Assembly: GCA_034530615.2 (NCBI GenBank)
Contig: JAVRCV020000073.1
Location: forward strand, 128,001-192,000
Direction of reading: 5' to 3'
Source of the DNA: Aulosira sp. ZfuVER01
GTDB taxonomy: Bacteria; Cyanobacteriota; Cyanobacteriia; Cyanobacteriales; Nostocaceae
DNA length: 64,000 nucleotides
Below the pieces are notes generated by a model. It ran no database searches, was not told the DNA's origin, and worked only from the letters and a program-made list of their open reading frames with translations. This document shows, one piece after another, positions 13,348 to 21,700 of the stretch. Every line of letters begins with the position of its first letter. The first letter of the stretch is position 1. Both the position numbers and the translations under genes were made by a program.

Positions 13348-14106
13348 ATGATTTATAACCACCAATTGCCAAAAAAATTGGCATTTTTGTCTCTATCAGT
13401 GATACTGGGGGCTGATTTAGCGATCGCAGAAATAGCTCCTTCAGCGGTTGCCCAAACTACTGCTATACAGTCATCTGTTGGTAATACTGTGACATTTACT
13501 TGTAATGACAGTGAGGCAACAATCAAAGCGAAAAATGGCCCCAAAGTTACTATTGGGTCAACAACAATCTACATAGGTTATCAGCAGGTATCATCTAATA
13601 ACAAAGATCCTCGCATCGTCCGTTTTGATAATGGTGTCAAGAGATGGTGTCGTACTGATTATGAAACGACTGGCGATGATGGTTCAGGCTATGGCTTGCT
13701 TTGGGATGGAAGAAGTGTTTTATATGGTGTTTTCTCCTCCACCGGAACCCAACCAGGAAATAATTTTGGGCGCTTTGCTATTGGTCGTTGGCTAACTAGT
13801 TATGGCAGTGGTGGCGGCCCCAAAGTAGCCATTATCGCTCGGATTGATCCAAATAATGGTAGCGTTAACTATGCCACATTTCTGACTGCCAAAAGACCAA
13901 GTGATGGGAAAACTAATTCTTTAGTAGTCAACAAACTATTATGGAATGGCTTGAATTTAACTGTACAGGCTAAATCTTGGTGGACTCCCCGTCGCACTAA
14001 TACAAGTGCAATGAATTGTTCTGGTTCATCACCTTATCAATACACAGCTGTATTCACTGGCGATTTAACAAAGATGAACTCGGCTTCAGCAGCTACTTGT
14101 AGTTAA
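13348..14106 (+). CDS. secreted hypothetical protein
   Basis: signal peptide ending AVA-Q; Gly/Thr-rich beta-type sequence with 4 Cys. Confidence 0.8.
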   Translation: MIYNHQLPKKLAFLSLSVILGADLAIAEIAPSAVAQTTAIQSSVGNTVTFTCNDSEATIKAKNGPKVTIGSTTIYIGYQQVSSNNKDPRIVRFDNGVKRWCRTDYETTGDDGSGYGLLWDGRSVLYGVFSSTGTQPGNNFGRFAIGRWLTSYGSGGGPKVAIIARIDPNNGSVNYATFLTAKRPSDGKTNSLVVNKLLWNGLNLTVQAKSWWTPRRTNTSAMNCSGSSPYQYTAVFTGDLTKMNSASAATCS

Positions 14107-14270
14107 TTAGGATTAGGGACTGTTATAGCCTGCGATCGCTTTTTGCTTTTCCGCAGGTTAGGCAATCCATCGTTATTTGGCTGGTAATCCTGGTACTCTA
14201 GACAAGCACTGAAGATAAAGTCAGAAAAAATCGCGACACAAGCAACTACACTCTGTTAGAATGCAGAATT

Positions 14271-14348
14271 GCGGCATTCGCTTTCAGTCTTAGCGCTTAC
14301 TGCGCATATAGCCCTTCAAACCATCCGTCCGCCTAAGACTGATGCCGC
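14271..14348 (+). promoter_or_regulatory. structured 5' UTR of the RNA helicase gene
   Basis: GCGGCA/TGCCGC and TCAGTCTTAG/CTAAGACTGA stems; TAGAAT -10-like box at 14257-14262. Confidence 0.6.
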
Positions 14349-14383
14349 CACTGGCGACAGGCCGATGTTATCTCTGGAGTTTT

Positions 14384-15733
14384 ATGTCTTTTTCTACTCT
14401 CGGCTTGTCCAATGAAATTGTCCGTGCTGTTACCGAGCGAGGATACACTAAACCTACGCAAATCCAGATGCAGGCGATTCCTGCGGTATTGTCAGGTGGG
14501 GATTTGCTAGCTGGTGCCCAAACTGGTACTGGAAAGACTGCTAGCTTCACCCTGCCACTTCTGTATAAGTTGTCCTCCGAAAAGAGCATTAAAGGCACAT
14601 CTGATAATGGATGTCCACCGATCCGGGCGCTGATTCTCACCCCGACACGTGAACTCGCCGCACAAGTGGAGGAAAGCGTGGTTTCCTATGGCAAATACCT
14701 AAAACTGAACTCAATGGTAATATACGGTGGGGTCAGCTTTAGTCAGCAAAAACGGCGTTTGCACAGTCGTGTGGATATTTTAGTTGCTACCCCAGGACGG
14801 CTGCTAGACCACGTGCAGCAGGGCACTGTCAACCTGTCACAGATTGAGGTGTTAGTACTGGATGAAGCAGATCGGATGTTAGACATGGGCTTTATCCGTG
14901 ATATCCGCCGCATTCTGTCGTTGCTGCCCAAACAGAGACAGAATTTGCTCTTCTTCGCCACTTTCTCTGACAAAATCAAGGAACTTGCCACCGGGCTGCT
15001 GAATCGCCCGACGACAATTGAGGTAGCACGCCGCAACGTTACCGCTGATAAAGTAACTCAGAAAGTCTACAAAGTAGACCGCGATCGGAAGCGCCAATTA
15101 CTTGCTCACCTGATACGGCAAAACAATTGGGAACAAGTTCTGGTGTTTACCCGCACCAAGTATGGTGCAGACCGTCTAGTTAAGCAGTTAGGCGAGGAGC
15201 GTATTCAAGCACTGGCCATCCACGGTAACAAGAGCCAATCGGCGCGTACCGACGCTCTGGCAAAGTTCAAGAATGGTAGCTTAAGGGTACTGGTAGCAAC
15301 CGACATTGCCGCTCGCGGTCTCGACATCAGCGAACTGCCCCATGTGGTCAACTTCGATCTGCCCTTTGTACCAGAGGATTATGTTCATCGTATTGGTCGC
15401 ACTGGCCGCGCTGGTGCCTCAGGGGAAGCAGTATCACTGGTTTGTGTCGATGATTATCCGTTGTTGGCAGCTATCGAAAGACTGATTGAACAACGCTTGC
15501 CTTTTGAAGTAGTTACTAGTTTGGGAGCTAATCGCCACATCAAGCTGGAAACAATCCCCAATGGACGCAAACATAAACCCAGAAATGAAAGCGATCGGCA
15601 GACATCTCGCTCTACTGCTAAACCGTTACCAGAAACAAAGGCAAAAAAATCGGCAACGCCAACCGTAACTGGTGGCAAAAAGTCTGGTAGTCGTACCTCC
15701 GCATCACGCCGTTGGGCTAAACGCGATCGCTAA
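14384..15733 (+). CDS. crhC: DEAD-box RNA helicase (CrhC-like, cold-inducible)
   Basis: [21 protein letters not shown] in place of SAT (CrhC hallmark), [15 protein letters not shown] before ATG 14384. Confidence 0.88.
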
Positions 15734-15830
15734 TCTATCAGGGTTAGCAATACTAAACGCCAAATGACAAACAGCATAATTTGATACTAAAATTTTAGTA
15801 TCAATTAAGTATTTACCTGTAAATAGGTTT

Positions 15831-16406
15831 TTGAAGATGATTTTAAATTTAAAACATCTCAGTGCTGTGTGTGTCGCACTTTTGCTAGCTAGCGCTAGCA
15901 GCTTCCCTAATTCAGCTATAGCATCTGCAAACAATCAATCTCAGAAGATTGCACAAAGCCAAGCTCAAACAAGTAAGTCTCAAGTAAATCCGGTTTTTAA
16001 GGCGATTCTACCCAAATTAAAGCAAAAAACTCAAATCAGGATTTTATTACCTAAGTTTATTCCTGAGTCGGATGGAGAAAACCCAATTTATGCAATTGTA
16101 GAAAACGCTACGCTGAAAAAATACGAAATCTTACTGGGTTTTAGTCCCGATTGTACTGGTGGAACTGCTTGCCGTTTAGGTATTGTGACTGCTGAAGCTG
16201 TAACACGTAAAACACCTCGTTTGACTGGGAAAGCTATCTCGTTAGCCAAGGGTATGACTGGCTATTTTGTGGATTTTAGTTGTGGTGCTAATTGCTCAGA
16301 TGCTACCTTGACTTGGCGGCAACAGGGTGTGCAATATACTGTTGGGTTGAAAGCAGGCGATCGCTCTTCGTTGGTAAAAATGGCTAATTCTGCGATCAAT
16401 CCCTAG
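15831..16406 (+). CDS. secreted hypothetical protein
   Basis: signal peptide; CTGGTAC and CGANC cysteine pairs. Confidence 0.8.
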   Translation: MKMILNLKHLSAVCVALLLASASSFPNSAIASANNQSQKIAQSQAQTSKSQVNPVFKAILPKLKQKTQIRILLPKFIPESDGENPIYAIVENATLKKYEILLGFSPDCTGGTACRLGIVTAEAVTRKTPRLTGKAISLAKGMTGYFVDFSCGANCSDATLTWRQQGVQYTVGLKAGDRSSLVKMANSAINP

Positions 16407-16420
16407 AACGTCGATTCAGT
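16404..16420 (+). repeat. direct repeat, copy 1
   Basis: TAGAACGTCGATTCAGT; 16/17 identical to 17205-17221; begins at a TAG stop codon. Confidence 0.75.
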
Positions 16421-16523
16421 TGTGCAGTTGGTTGTTGGTGTAGGTTTTAATGTAGGAGATAGGTTTGATTATCCTCTCTGTACCTAGCAATGAATATTAA
16501 AGCGATGTAGAAGGCAAAAAATT

Positions 16524-17207
16524 ATGATTCAAGCCTTACGTAAGCTAGTAACATTTGATGATTTTATCGCTTGGTATCCAGAAAACTCCCTACAACGCTA
16601 TGAACTGCATGACGGAGTAATTGTTGAGATGTCCCCACCTACTGGCGATCATGAAGAAATTATCGGTTTTTTAGCGCTAGAAATATCTGTTGAAATCAGG
16701 CGACTAAAACTGCCTTATTTTATTCCCAAAACAGCATTCATCAAACCATTGGAAGGTGACTCAGCTTACTCACCAGATGTGTTGATATTAAATCAGCCTA
16801 ATTTAGTGAATGAGCCTCGATGGAAAAAAGAATCGACTGTCAGCCAAGCTGAATCAATTCCTTTAGCAATTGAAGTGGTGAGTCAGTGCGTTGCGCGGGT
16901 TCCCCGCGTTAAAGCAACTGACGAACCCGTAAGGGTTAGTACCAACTGGAGAGATGATTATTTAAAAAAAGCGGCTGACTATGAAGCAGTAGGTATTCCC
17001 GAATACTGGATTGTCGATTATGCAGCTTTAGGTGGTAGGCGGTTTATTGGCAATCCCAAACAACCCACTATCTCGATTTACTCGTTAGTTGAGGGGGAAT
17101 ACCAAGTTCGGCAGTTCCTTCAAGGAGAACGCCTCATCTCACAAGTTTTCCCGGAATTAAATTTGGCTGCTGAACAAATTTTTCAAGTTGGAAGTGTGCC
17201 AAGTTAG
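16524..17207 (+). CDS. Uma2 family endonuclease with a 19-aa in-frame insertion
   Basis: RYELHDG, SPDV, IEVVS...STNWRDDY, GIPEYWIVD. Confidence 0.9.
   Translation: MIQALRKLVTFDDFIAWYPENSLQRYELHDGVIVEMSPPTGDHEEIIGFLALEISVEIRRLKLPYFIPKTAFIKPLEGDSAYSPDVLILNQPNLVNEPRWKKESTVSQAESIPLAIEVVSQCVARVPRVKATDEPVRVSTNWRDDYLKKAADYEAVGIPEYWIVDYAALGGRRFIGNPKQPTISIYSLVEGEYQVRQFLQGERLISQVFPELNLAAEQIFQVGSVPS
16881..16937 (+). repeat. 57-nt structured element inserted in frame in Uma2
   Basis: splits IEVV|STNWRDDY; stems GTCAGT/ACTGAC, CGCGGG/CCCGCG and AACCC-GTAA-GGGTT. Confidence 0.8.
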
Positions 17208-17221
17208 AACATCGATTCAGT
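17205..17221 (+). repeat. direct repeat, copy 2
   Basis: TAGAACATCGATTCAGT beginning at the Uma2 stop codon. Confidence 0.75.
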
Positions 17222-17241
17222 AATCATGATTGTTACGGTAA

Positions 17242-17276
17242 GGACAAGGGGACAAGGGGACAAGGGGACAAGGAGA
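17242..17276 (+). repeat. (GGACAAGG)4 tandem array; left arm of a 35-bp inverted repeat
   Basis: GGACAAGGGGACAAGGGGACAAGGGGACAAGGAGA ending on the A of the ATG. Confidence 0.9.
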
Positions 17277-17662
17277 TGAAAAAAGAATCCATCAAGACTC
17301 ATGAAGATTTAGAGGTTTATCAACAGGCGTTCTCCGCAGCGATGGAAATCTTTGAAATCTCGAAGACATTTCCAGTAGAGGAACGATATTCCTTAACTGA
17401 CCAAATTCGTCGATCATCTCGCTCAGTATGCGCTAATTTAGCGGAAGCTTGGCGCAAACGAAGATATAAAGCAGCCTTTGTTGCTAAACTTAATGATTGT
17501 GAAGCAGAAGCCGCAGAAACTCAAGTCTGGCTGAAGTTTGCTGTGAAATGCAACTACTTAGATATAGAACAAGGGCGAGAATTGTATGGACTTTATAATC
17601 GAGTTCTCGGACAATTGGTGAGCATGATTAACAACCCTTCTGTTTGGATCATTCGGCAATAA
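17276..17662 (+). CDS. four helix bundle protein (23S rRNA IVP-like family)
   Basis: HEDLEVYQ, FPVEERYSLTDQIRRSSRSVCANLAEAW, AETQVWL. Confidence 0.92.
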   Translation: MKKESIKTHEDLEVYQQAFSAAMEIFEISKTFPVEERYSLTDQIRRSSRSVCANLAEAWRKRRYKAAFVAKLNDCEAEAAETQVWLKFAVKCNYLDIEQGRELYGLYNRVLGQLVSMINNPSVWIIRQ

Positions 17663-17669
17663 AGGATAC

Positions 17670-17704
17670 TCTCCTTGTCCCCTTGTCCCCTTTTCCCCTT
17701 GTCC
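17670..17704 (-). repeat. (CCTTGTCC)4 tandem array; right arm of the 35-bp inverted repeat
   Basis: TCTCCTTGTCCCCTTGTCCCCTTTTCCCCTTGTCC; 34/35 match to the reverse complement of 17242-17276. Confidence 0.9.
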
Positions 17705-17713
17705 CCCAATTGA

Positions 17714-17743
17714 AAACCCCTCTTCGCGTGCGAGGAGGGGTTT
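17714..17743. terminator. bidirectional terminator hairpin
   Basis: AAACCCCTCTTCGC-GT-GCGAGGAGGGGTTT between convergent genes. Confidence 0.75.
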
Positions 17744-17757
17744 AACTTTGAATATTC

Positions 17758-18741
17758 TTAATATCCTTCTTCTTCGTATTCTGGCTGTTTTTCTTTAACT
17801 TTCTTGGGAATATTCACGGGCTTTGGTGCATCGTCCCAAGCATCGCCATCTACATCGTCATAATTGTCGTACTCGTCAACGTATGGCTTTTTGTAGGGTT
17901 GGGCTTCATACTTTAGAGGCTGTTGATAACTGTCTTTATCTGTCGCCTCACTCCAGTTGTCTTCTTCGTCGTCTTCTTCGTATTGAATCGATTCGTACTG
18001 TCGCGCTTGCATTACCTGGCGCTGGGGTCTTTCTTCTTCCACATAGTCTTCATCCCATTCTTCCCGGGCTACGGGTTCGGGGGTGCGAACTTTTGGCTTG
18101 GGTGGTTGCAATGGTACACCGCTTGGTAGTTGGTTCGCAGGTGCTACAGTGCGAGGGGCACTATAGCCGTATTCTTCATCAGCATCGCGCTCCCACGGGG
18201 CTTTGCCAATACCTAAACGCTCTAGCAAGCCAACTGTCAATTGATTGGCGCGTTCTTCAGCTCCTTCAAATACAATCAATCTGCTGGGGCCTGTGCTGAC
18301 GATTTCTTCAATTGATAGTTCGTAAGTACTCAAGACTTGCTCAGGTATTTGTGGCAATCCCAAAGAAGCAATGACTATGGAATGAAGTTTGCCATTTTCA
18401 CCATTGAATTTGAAGCCCCGCACTCTACCTAGTACTTCGCCGGTTTCTGTAATTACTTCCCAGTTAATTAGGTTGCTTAATGCTTCTACTTCAATATCTT
18501 CAATTACGTCCTCGTTATCTACCAGGATGACATCACCAATCTGGCTGATACTGCTAAGGTACATATTGCGCGGTATACCAGAAATAGAGATCAGGCTGTC
18601 TCTCAAGCCAAGAGCCACAACCTCTCTTTGGTCAATATCCACCCAGACTTGACTGACGATGCCTACTCGCTTACCGTTATCGCGGGTAATCACCTGAGTA
18701 TTTAATATGTCGGAACGCCTAATTATCTGTTCAGAGGTCAT
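17758..18741 (-). CDS. PRC-barrel domain protein
   Basis: MTSEQIIRRSDILNTQVITRDNG; two PRC barrels and an acidic tail; directly downstream of smc. Confidence 0.88.
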   Translation of the reverse strand: MTSEQIIRRSDILNTQVITRDNGKRVGIVSQVWVDIDQREVVALGLRDSLISISGIPRNMYLSSISQIGDVILVDNEDVIEDIEVEALSNLINWEVITETGEVLGRVRGFKFNGENGKLHSIVIASLGLPQIPEQVLSTYELSIEEIVSTGPSRLIVFEGAEERANQLTVGLLERLGIGKAPWERDADEEYGYSAPRTVAPANQLPSGVPLQPPKPKVRTPEPVAREEWDEDYVEEERPQRQVMQARQYESIQYEEDDEEDNWSEATDKDSYQQPLKYEAQPYKKPYVDEYDNYDDVDGDAWDDAPKPVNIPKKVKEKQPEYEEEGY

Positions 18742-18799
18742 TCTATACCGAGTCCTGATCTCGAATCCGGTTAATCTATACACTATTATTAACAAAAAC

Positions 18800-21700
18800 T
18801 CAAGCAGATGTATGGTCGGTTTGCAATTTAATTCCCAAAACTTGGGTGTAAGCGCCCCGTGCTTGAGTAACGCCAATTGTGCGTTCGGCTGATTCTATCA
18901 TCGGTCGGCGCAAACTCACAACTATAAATTGTGCTTGTTTTGCCTGTTGTTTAATCATTCTAGCTAATCGCTCTACGTTTGCCCCATCCAAAAACATATC
19001 GACTTCGTCAAAAGCGTAGAAGGGTGAAGGGCGATAGCGTTGCAAGGAAAAGATAAAGCTTAAGGCTGTGAGAGATTTTTCACCACCGGACATGGAAGCT
19101 AATCTTTGCACCGGTTTTCCTTTGGGGTGTGCTACCAGATTGAGTCCACTGCTAAAGGGATCTTCGGGATCGTCTAGTTGTAGGTAGCCATCACCGTCGG
19201 AAAGGGTGGCGAAAATTGATTGGAAGTTTTCGTTTACTGCGTCGAAGGCTTCTTTAAAGGCGCGTTGACGCAATGTAGTAAAGTTTTCAATCCGCAAAAG
19301 TAATTCTGTGCGCTCTCCTTCTAATGTTTCTAGTTTTTGCGTCAGTTCTTGCAGGCGGTTTTGGGTGCGTTCATATTCTTCTAAGGCCAGCATATTTACT
19401 GGTTCCATTGCTTGCAAGCGTTTGGCAAGCGATCGCAATTCTTTCTGCAATTCTTCTAAGTCTACTTGATCGGGTACTTCTGGCAGAGGATCGGGCAATT
19501 CTGGCGCTAGGGTTTGCAGTTGCTCTTTGACGTTAACTAATTCCTCACGCCGTGCTACAAGAGTTTCTTGGAGTTTTTCCAGTTCCCATTCTAATTGTTG
19601 TTGACGCAGGAGATGCGATCGCAATTCTTGTTCGGTGCGATCGCGTTTTTGCTTTTCTTCCCCTAAATTCTGTTCCATCTGGCTCAACGTCGCCCGCATT
19701 TCGGCAATTTGGGTGCTGAGTGCTGAGTGCTGGGTACTGAGTGCAGTTAGTTGATTTTGCTGTGTTTCTTGCTCCTGCTGGTATTGAGCAATTCGTTCCT
19801 CGGCTTCTTGGATTTTTTCTTGTAAGCGCTGTTGCTGATTTTCGAGATTTTTTAATCTTTGTTCGGCTTCGCGTAAGGCTGTCTCTCTTTGTTGTAATTG
19901 TTGCTCTTGGTTTTTAATGGTTGCTTGGATTTGTTGCCATTCGCTGGGGGTTTGGGAGGCTTCTAACTCCGCTAAAGTTTGTCGCAATTGTTGCAACTGC
20001 GTTTCTTGTCCTGGTAATTCCCGATCTAGAATCTCCAAGCGAGATTGAGCAGTGGCGAATTTTTCGTTATTTTGCGCTAATTGCGATCGCGTTGTTTCTA
20101 ACTGCGCTGTCAAAGTTTTAATTTCTTTTTGCAACTGTTCTAATTGCAACTGCTGTTCGCGCCGCGCTTGACGTGCTTCTGTGACTTCTTGCGCCAAGGC
20201 TTTGGTTTTGATTGATAGCTTATTGATGGCTTCACCACAACGATCTAAAACTCGCTCAATTTCTCCTAAGCGATTTCTTAAAGCGGCGACTTCTTCCGGT
20301 TCGGCGGCTTCCACGTTCCCAAACCGCAACGATGAACGCTGGTTGTTGCTACCACCAGTCATCGCACCGCTAGTTTCTAATAATTCGCCGTCTAAGGTGA
20401 CAATGCGGTATAAACCTAAGTTTTTCCGCGCCTGTTCTAAGGTAGAAAATACGACGGTGTTACCAAATACATAGCTAAAAACATCTTTATAACGGCGATC
20501 GCACTCAACTAAATTTACAGCATAGTTGACGAAGCCACTGGCTAGACGCAGTGTGGCATCTTGGGTAAATCTGGGAGCGTTAATTTTATTTAAGGGTAAA
20601 AAAGTAGCTCTCCCGGCGCGTTTCTGCTTTAACAGTTCAATCCCAGCAGCCGCAACACCATCATCTTCCACCACAATATGTCCTAAACGCCCACCAGCAG
20701 CAATTTCCAAAGCTAGCTGAAAACGGGGTTCGACTCTGCCTAACTGTACCACTAAGCCACAAAGTCCCGGCATTCCTGATTGCATGATGACTTTGCTAGC
20801 TTGAGTTCCTTGGATTTCTTGTTGTGCTTGCGCTTGCGCTTCAAGTTTATCTAACTGTCGTTGTTTTTCCCGTTGTTCTTGTAAAAGCCGCTTTTGCGTA
20901 TCCTGTTGGATTTGCAGTTCTTGTTCTGTGGCTGCGAGATTTTGCGCTAAGTTTTGGATCGGTTCGCTAGAGGCGTTAAATTCTGTTTCTAGGCGACTAC
21001 AATCAGCTTGTTTTGTGGCTAATTCTGGTTCTAAAGTGGCAATTAGCTGGGTTTGCTCTTGAATTTGCTGCTGTAGTTGGCTATTACGCTCTGTTAACTG
21101 TGCTTGCTCAGTGCGTTGGGGTTCGAGAGTTTGCAGCAAAGTTTCGATTTGACGGTTTAACGCCGTTTGTTGCTGTACCCACGCTTCCGAAGCCGAAGCA
21201 ATTTCTGCTGCTGCTTGGCGAGAAACTTCTAAACCTTGTTGCGTCTCATCCCGCTGCTGCTGACAGTAGACGATTGATTGCTTTTCGACAACCTGAGTTT
21301 GCGCAATTTGTTCTAGGGAACGTTGGTGTTGTTGAATTTCTTGCTGGCTTTGCGCCTGACGTTTGGTAGTTTCTTGAGTGGCTGTTTCTAATTCGCTGCG
21401 TTGACGCTGGAGTTGTTTGTACTCAGCTTCTTGGGTAGCGAGGCTAGATTGTACCGCTAAAAGTTCCTCTTCCCCCAAAGCTTTCACATGAGCATTGAGT
21501 TGATCGAGTTCAACGGTGGTTTGCTCAATTGTAGTGTTGAGAGTTGTCAGTTCCGCCGAAAGTTCTTGTGATTTGCGATCGCCATTTTGAATTTGGTTAG
21601 CTAATTTTTCTTGCTGTGCTTGTAGAGAACGCCACGATAACACTGCTTCCCAAGATTGTTTGGCGAGATATTCGGCGCGGAGTTTTTGGTATTTTTCGGC

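Follow-up and report, generated by a model that had tools for sequence, protein, structure and literature searches.

A four-helix-bundle gene between inverted tandem-repeat arrays, a candidate repeat-gene-repeat cassette outside rRNA in Aulosira sp. ZfuVER01

Within the window, that is the whole 64,000-nucleotide stretch of DNA analysed here, we identified a small four-helix-bundle gene lying between two inverted arrays of tandem octamers. The reading we favour, at a confidence close to even, is that gene and arrays form a repeat-gene-repeat cassette which is gained, lost and swapped as a unit in intergenic slots and whose product, a predicted Avd-like ring, binds its own repeats at both ends. 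The gene (17276..17662, plus strand) encodes a 128 amino acid protein of the PF05635/TIGR02436 family, of the WRKRRY type and belonging to what we term clade A. The left arm (17242..17276, plus strand) consists of four GGGGACAA-type octamers, the first of them partial, and an inner GGAGA unit; it can be written as (GGACAAGG)x4 followed by AGA, its last base is the A of the ATG at 17276, it overlaps the likely ribosome-binding region and its sense strand carries the clade motif GGNGA with a period of 8. The right arm (17670..17706, minus strand) is an inverted octamer array with the GGNGA motif on the minus strand. It starts at the eighth base past the TAA stop codon (17660-17662), and over 17670-17704 it is complementary to the left arm at 34/35 positions (97 %), the mismatch falling at 17693. 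The preliminary description of this DNA had reported a 35-bp inverted repeat tightly enclosing the gene, which is borne out exactly by the sequence.

The cassette is set between a co-directional Uma2-family gene upstream (16524..17207, plus strand), which is context outside the cassette, and a convergent PRC-barrel gene downstream (17758..18876, minus strand), whose 3′ end anchors the comparison of sites below. Between the cassette and the PRC-barrel gene lies a terminator-like hairpin (17714..17748), rich in GC and followed by a T tail on the plus strand; because empty sites retain a similar one, we take it as host sequence marking the right boundary. An Rfam scan of 14000-21000 returned zero matches, the location being between the Uma2 and PRC-barrel genes and not in rRNA, and profile searches matched no transposase family. 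Scanning for promoters gave 3 sites, close to the 2.3 expected. Three RNA runs, each with a 5-6 % share of words with the window, were considered and one (X1) was mapped; its reads fell on the PRC-barrel gene and on a short repeat within the Uma2 gene only, leaving the cassette uncovered. The Uma2 gene is itself bracketed by a 17-nt direct repeat (16/17; 16404-16420 and 17205-17221). A congener without Uma2 (G005) has the start of this repeat once, directly before the left arm, and Uma2 therefore looks like a separate insert. It contains in turn a short in-frame palindromic insert (about 16885-16940) whose 22-nt core has 21 genome matches at ≤ 2 mismatches; similar inserts, which we take to be SDR-like, disrupt the C63 paralog described below and the Uma2 orthologs of two congeners, G007 and G010.

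By a score for enclosing inverted repeats the window gene ranks 5th of 5768 ORFs in the genome, only 8 of which score ≥ 25, so that the arms exceed what chance would give; the ORFs were taken from a simple ATG caller which returned 5801, 33 of them near contig ends being dropped. The suggestion that the transcript could fold into a long stem with the ORF as its loop agrees with the computed fold of the 536-nt region, in which the arms pair as one stem (z = -7.5, with 0/100 shuffles equally stable).

Comparison of 15 genomes of the genus, G000 being this genome, matched the PRC-barrel 3′ end in 15/15 and located the cassette at the window site in 2/15, G000 and G005 only. In G007 and G010 the Uma2 stop codon runs nearly straight into the hairpin with neither gene nor arms between them; Uma2 without the cassette occurs in these two genomes and in G001 and G011, and the cassette without an upstream Uma2 in G005. 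The orthologous cassette of G005 has about 6-7 left and 2-3 right units and differs from that of G000 in its innermost unit, which has changed together in both arms. A second site, found in 5/15 genomes, holds a 28-nt spacer (empty) in 2, an octamer cassette with a clade-A gene in 2, and in 1 a cassette with heptamer arms whose gene is an unrelated member of the family from another clade. The third site, found in 15/15, holds a KYF-type protein with GTCAA-type arms in 6 genomes and a KRF-type protein with GTCAT-type arms in 8, while in 1 most of the ORF is deleted between intact arms; both combinations of protein and arms are represented among genomes whose upstream DNA is 93-94 % identical. 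Homologous recombination through the flanks would be enough to account for the third-site swaps. The filling of this site, by cassette or remnant, in 15/15 is more suggestive of a long stay than of frequent jumps. No target-site duplication was seen by eye between filled and empty sites. Sites without gene and arms (in G007, in G010 and in 2 genomes at the second site), together with the unit-wise swaps, uphold the earlier claim that gene plus arms are a self-contained unit outside rRNA.

The slot beside the PRC-barrel 3′ end (L002-L025) is hypervariable in relatives, with differing upstream genes, stacked palindromic repeats and single arrays, and in one genome (G016, L020) it holds a gene-less octamer/heptamer pair. 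G016 has three copies (L085-L087) of a clade-A cassette that has heptamer arms and stands in place of the middle part of a TnpB-like gene; at L085 the C-terminal Cas12f1-like TNB domain persists downstream and the upstream fragment is without a Pfam match, and here an insertion sequence appears to carry the cassette.

This genome contains six members of the family, and by eye 5/6 are flanked by inverted arrays of a different unit each. Octamer arms flank the window gene (contig C73) and the C63 paralog, whose gene is broken by short inserts; the arms are degenerate octamers at C4, nonamers at C52 and heptamers at C25, and C64 has none. On the strict inverted-repeat score, from which C63 was left out, C52 ranks 4th, C73 5th, C4 88th, C25 897th and C64 3393rd. 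The family is present in 36/41 relatives. C64 (G000:C64:68455-68814) groups with L065, L073 and L079 in a divergent acidic lineage that occupies a conserved site and lacks clear arms; it may represent a domesticated copy in which repeat recognition has been lost. The same repeat-gene-repeat layout surrounds five other small genes (C39:21849-22238, C7:116207-116584, C80:16664-17041, C3:70505-70888 and C22:72595-73146), namely three GxxExxY/PDDEXK_3 nucleases (two of the three run through Pfam), one DUF559 gene and one with a weak match to Y1 transposases, each inside its own repeat type and at the top ranks of the inverted-repeat list.

The broad survey was limited to clade A because the diverse alignment was too variable for a scan of the collection. 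It took the best 80 of 587 genome matches and the best 80 of 588 metagenome matches, and 152/160 loci were kept once edge, short and duplicate loci had been dropped. At these best-match loci, kin included and so not independent, arms score ≥ 14 in 102/152 against 3/291 neighbouring ORFs, in line with the earlier expectation that paralogs would be enriched for flanking inverted arrays with varying units. Arms swapped between loci of this survey reach the score in 10.7 % of 1500 cases, and arms in direct orientation in 16/152. The surveyed best matches come from Planctomycetes, Verrucomicrobia, Chloroflexi, Acidobacteria, Bacteroidetes, Deltaproteobacteria, Nitrospirae and one archaeal bin, with the same repeat motif recurring in Planctomycetes, Chloroflexi, Bacteroidetes, Deltaproteobacteria and others among them. 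Outside cyanobacteria, other clades contributed 18 loci, 8 of which have arms scoring ≥ 14. The neighbouring genes listed (53/66, Pfam E ≤ 1e-15) are diverse and mostly housekeeping, often coupled pairs split by the cassette, and among them there is no reverse transcriptase (RT), polymerase or transposase and no conserved partner gene. Viral contigs gave 16 pattern matches, zero of them confirmed. At L128 and L234 (period 8) and at L167 (period 9) periodic inverted arrays enclose neighbouring genes as well, so that around some cassettes the arrays run on through the operon.

The window protein matches PF05635 (E 1.4e-30) and TIGR02436 (E 2.9e-28) and passes the curated cut-offs of the TIGR02436/PF05635 profile searches (106.1 bits vs 33.8; 98.2 vs 24), in a family with at least 8000 relatives in the protein search; the top matches include proteins named Nostoc or Calothrix, which puts the window among heterocyst-type cyanobacteria. 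Its AlphaFold model has four helices (pLDDT 94.9) and matches the structures of Xcc0516 (2GSC; Z 18.1, rmsd 1.9 over 113 residues), BT_0352 (2RLD; Z 16.0) and Avd (Z 14.3-14.6), all above the helical background, and the four-helix S23/Avd-like fold proposed earlier is supported at the level of the model. Avd (PDB 4DWL, 8UB7) shares this fold at 11-16 % identity, with the Avd HMMs below cut-off against the window protein (NF033474, 28.4 vs 80; PF22296, 29.2 vs 40). No recognised catalytic motif was seen in the window protein, an all-helical bundle, and Arg60 is a one-residue insertion in clade A relative to the heptamer clades. The 2GSC and 2RLD entries contain 5 chains each, and Xcc0516 is described as a toroidal homopentamer (PMC4990558); from 2GSC and 2RLD only, the window protein is predicted to be a likely Avd-like five-subunit ring. 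In the structure of a diversity-generating retroelement (DGR), one RNA element is touched by each of the five Avd protomers, and flipped RNA bases lie in inter-protomer crevices where the same residues read each (bioRxiv 10.1101/2023.10.23.563531).

Repeat unit and protein vary together. Where arrays lie on both sides of the gene, the period in clade A is 8 in 115/149 loci (7 in 20, 9 in 12 and 10 in 2), and in other clades it is 7 in 33/33; among further non-A loci outside cyanobacteria 7 is the best period in 13/18. This link of period to clade is, on the present sequences, one evolutionary event and not a statistic. Without anchoring, the motif G.GA is found on the sense strand of the left arm in 103/121 octamer arrays, compared with 2 for its reverse complement and 60.5 for shuffled arrays. 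Arm units were compared at 90 of 165 clade-A loci, those with ≥ 2 units per arm, where the units of the two arms coincide at variable positions clearly more often than expected from swapped arms and the median is 4 units per arm. Unit numbers are equal in both arms at only 16/90 loci, and at G005 they are about 6-7 vs 2-3, so that the matched arm length noted in the window does not hold as a general trait. Of all the columns tested, protein residue 9 gives the strongest signal, in its association with unit base 8 (z 16): His9, as in the window protein, where it tracks unit base 8, occurs with a non-C base in 47/50 cases and Phe/Tyr9 with C in 38/48. Nine of 9 new His9 loci fit the non-C rule, and 0 new Phe/Tyr loci were obtained. 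Under permutation within clusters the p value was 0.0002 for two cut-offs and 0.09 for the strictest one. Residue 9 changes about 5-8 times on the trees, with 1-3 supported tree-independent pairs, a number at which the tree-independent test cannot reach significance, and a code linking residue 9 to unit base 8 is suggestive, not established.

Repeats of the same kind are abundant away from the gene. This genome has 919 arrays, 677 of period 7, 52 of period 8 and 190 of period 9, compared with zero in 0.88 Mb of shuffled sequence. About half of them match cassette units exactly, as against 2-5 % for shuffled units (4.8 % for heptamers). Exact matches to arm units of other cyanobacteria, taken from the arms of 62 cassettes, a few of the units being mis-oriented internal arrays, number 356/677 for heptamer, 11/52 for octamer and 73/190 for nonamer arrays. 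In being 7-bp, tandem and intergenic the heptamer arrays of this genome resemble the STRRs of filamentous cyanobacteria, whose function is stated as unknown (PMC2670836); the source passage makes no link to a protein family, and the link proposed here is the sequence match of the heptamer arrays to arm units. Gene-less oriented pairs, with orientation labels for some octamers and nonamers derived from this genome's own cassettes, comprise 60 of a left-type followed by a right-type array (F-R) vs 1 R-F, 5 F-F and 4 R-R. Only 4 of the 60 F-R pairs have the same unit within one mismatch, and 44 join different periods and therefore cannot form a stem. Asymmetric gene-less modules, in which a heptamer array meets an inverted nonamer array via a short shared junction, make up 37/73 adjacent 7/9 pairs (in G000 for example C36:126237-126383, C79:19807-19935 and C41:229183-229289); they admit no hairpin and may be a copied MITE-like family. 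The idea that the genome-wide repeats depend on a resident clade-A gene was rejected. In a hand count over 91 cyanobacterial genomes, 38 of them from one family, the gene was found in 9/32 genomes with ≥ 11 pattern matches and in 0/59 others, so that 23/32 array-bearing genomes have arrays without a clade-A gene found and the arrays need no resident gene; the array pattern used is not specific, its reversed control being as frequent in several genomes.

In the cassette reading that we prefer, each subunit interface would recognise a single unit of the repeat, just as flipped-out bases are read by the protomers of Avd, and arrays of about 3-5 units would be multivalent sites for the ring; one unit per interface would fit both the roughly 4-5 units per arm and the clade-set period. 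One protein would read both arrays, on the sense strand at the left and the antisense strand at the right, and the right-arm motif on the opposite strand points to reading of both DNA strands or ends and not of mRNA alone. The arrays would be alike because one protein reads both, making the long stem mostly a by-product, which RNase III may still cut where it is long. The cassette would usually ride on the transcript of the upstream gene, and the protein, by binding the left array at its overlap with the ribosome-binding region, would hold down its own expression. Selfish spread would proceed via host enzymes, by recombination through flanking genes and possibly by a reverse transcriptase in trans, and loss of the ORF would leave gene-less arrays that then expand by slippage. 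Speaking for this reading are the excess of arms over neighbouring ORFs, the unanchored motif, the clade-specific period, the residue-9 association, the empty and swapped sites, the mostly null stem tests given below, the structural matches, the low dN/dS of the gene (0.068) and the co-directional upstream gene (130/152 vs 123/176 background pairs). Weighing against it are the few changes at residue 9, the single origin of the period-clade link, the likeness of inner-anchored units of the two arms, the joint innermost-unit change between G000 and G005, the finding of a clade-A gene in only 9/32 array-bearing cyanobacterial genomes, the persistence of the C64 lineage without clear arrays and the third site filled in 15/15; the mobility step finds no support in a target-site duplication, a catalytic motif or a partner enzyme, none of which was seen.

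An alternative which we consider unlikely is that the cassette is an intervening sequence (IVS) resident in mRNA, its arms kept as an RNA stem through which RNase III removes the ORF or insulates it from the host transcript, as happens in 23S rRNA; the repeats would then be no more than a convenient means of preserving a stem, and the protein need not read them. It has a precedent in the 23S IVS of Coxiella burnetii (helix 45), which has a terminal stem of 28 bp and, ahead of the S23p start, heptamers in tandem, with RNase III cleaving at the first of them (PMC4990558). The 35-bp stem of the window with its computed stability speaks for it, as do the agreement of left and right units at variable positions and the greater likeness of inner-anchored units of the two arms over shuffled order (47/67, p=8e-5); the last of these and the joint innermost-unit change between G000 and G005 both fit stem pairing. 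It is also favoured by the co-directional upstream gene, seen in 130/152 loci of the best-160 survey vs 123/176 background pairs, the downstream gene being co-directional in 100/137 of the same survey vs the same background, in counts that include kin and are not independent. Against it, sense-strand transition mismatches show no bias of G.U over A.C (150 vs 187; away from the start 126 vs 146), unit order is not mirrored at the best offset (p = 0.70), an arm gains nothing in pairing from its own partner over a foreign arm that shares the consensus (0.739 vs 0.731, n=58, p=0.35), sense and antisense arm duplexes do not differ in stability, and only 83/218 loci have a near-perfect duplex of ≥ 22 bp. 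Nor does it explain the clade-specific period, the motif and the residue-9 link, and the 44/60 gene-less pairs that mix periods here could form no stem at all. Base-by-base pairing of the stem is thus mostly not detectably under selection in these sequences, and the earlier proposal of selection for an RNA stem beyond the shared unit fails in most tests, the inner-anchored one alone favouring it, while slippage homogenising the arrays could hide such selection.

It is less probable still that the protein is a maintained host regulator, whose ring on the left mRNA array tunes the translation or decay of its own message and of host operons bearing the same repeats, and whose distribution reflects ordinary gain and loss. 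The gene is, on its divergence from the G005 ortholog, under purifying selection (dN/dS 0.068, near the 0.04 of the neighbouring PRC-barrel gene), cassettes lie within tightly coupled operons, the third site is filled in 15/15 congeners, and the motifs of the resident clades occur on 415/677 heptamer and 170/242 octamer/nonamer arrays of this genome, all of which this explanation would accommodate. The right-arm motif, however, lies on the non-coding strand, so binding to mRNA does not explain the right arm; presence is patchy (2/15 at the window site), unrelated cassettes occupy one slot, and broken copies are frequent, with 4/15 at the third site and 6/90 among cyanobacterial loci.

We think it quite improbable that the protein writes the repeats instead of reading them, acting together with a host polymerase or RT to add units inward from both ends during insertion or repair and so setting array polarity and period. 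The strict polarity of the gene-less pairs, many of which mix unit families, the variable unit numbers and the role of Avd as an RT cofactor would agree with this; yet neither an RT nor a polymerase is among the 53 listed neighbours, array-rich genomes are often without the gene, and the junction shared by 37/73 mixed pairs suggests copying of a ready-made module. That the arrangement is a coincidence, lineage-specific tandem repeats having spread into intergenic DNA and ended up on both sides of a small orphan gene, is very improbable and, on these comparisons, already largely refuted: the 919 arrays of this genome, their abundance without the gene and their presence on both sides of some ordinary genes would allow it, but not the excess of arms over neighbouring ORFs in the same loci of the best-160 survey, nor the same motif across many phyla, nor gene and both arms appearing and changing together at single sites.

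Several known systems can be set beside the cassette that we prefer. The window gene differs from the Avd gene of a DGR in having no adjacent reverse transcriptase, its neighbours encoding the Uma2 and PRC-barrel proteins. TRAP forms an oligomeric ring that binds tandem (G/U)AG repeats, one short repeat per subunit interface; in contrast to the window protein it has an unrelated fold, a single mRNA array and no cassette that is gained and lost. The closest organisational parallel is RAYT/REPIN, which likewise combines a small single-copy gene with its own repeat family, paralog-specific flavours and scattered gene-less inverted doublets (PMC3116915). RAYT, however, is an HUH/Y1 nuclease with palindromic REPs (PMC3116915), whereas here the protein is all-helical and the repeats are non-palindromic tandem 7-9-mers; and where REPINs form hairpins, most gene-less pairs here are mixed and form none, although polarity is kept (60 F-R vs 1 R-F). 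The Coxiella IVS has a member of the same family with its ORF in terminal inverted repeats, repeats before the start and a sporadic distribution; it lies in rRNA whereas the window cassette lies between protein-coding genes, and its ORF is decaying whereas the window cassette has clade-specific octamers and an ORF under purifying selection. The accessible text of PMC4990558 presents the repeats neither as a trait of the family nor as sites for the protein. A full-text literature search, covering main texts and few subscription papers, brought up no account of such a cassette beyond rRNA and none that ties it to STRRs, and the accessible parts of a 2026 preprint on RTs with tandem arrays and of PMC8700078 do not describe the cassette. 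The anatomy is known from the Coxiella rRNA IVS; here it is real and general, with a plausible path to a new class.

A wider reading, which we offer tentatively and regard as rather doubtful, is that TIGR02436 proteins are programmable repeat readers, five-subunit rings in which the clade sets the period (7, 8 or 9) and N-terminal residues set individual bases, and that they form nuclease-free selfish cassettes of which the rRNA IVS is a special case and whose hollowed and recombined ends are the source of the hundreds of STRR arrays in filamentous cyanobacteria. New in the present analysis are the null stem tests, the octamer-clade motif with the residue-9 test, the mixed 7/9 gene-less modules and the finding of no genome-level dependence. 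The null stem tests would place recognition of the repeats by the protein ahead of RNase III as an experimental priority, and a very common family of unknown function gains a specificity prediction at a single residue, His9 versus Phe/Tyr9 against unit base 8. A testable origin is offered for the STRR repeats, and ORF-bearing rRNA IVSs would be recast as one landing site of a general cassette.
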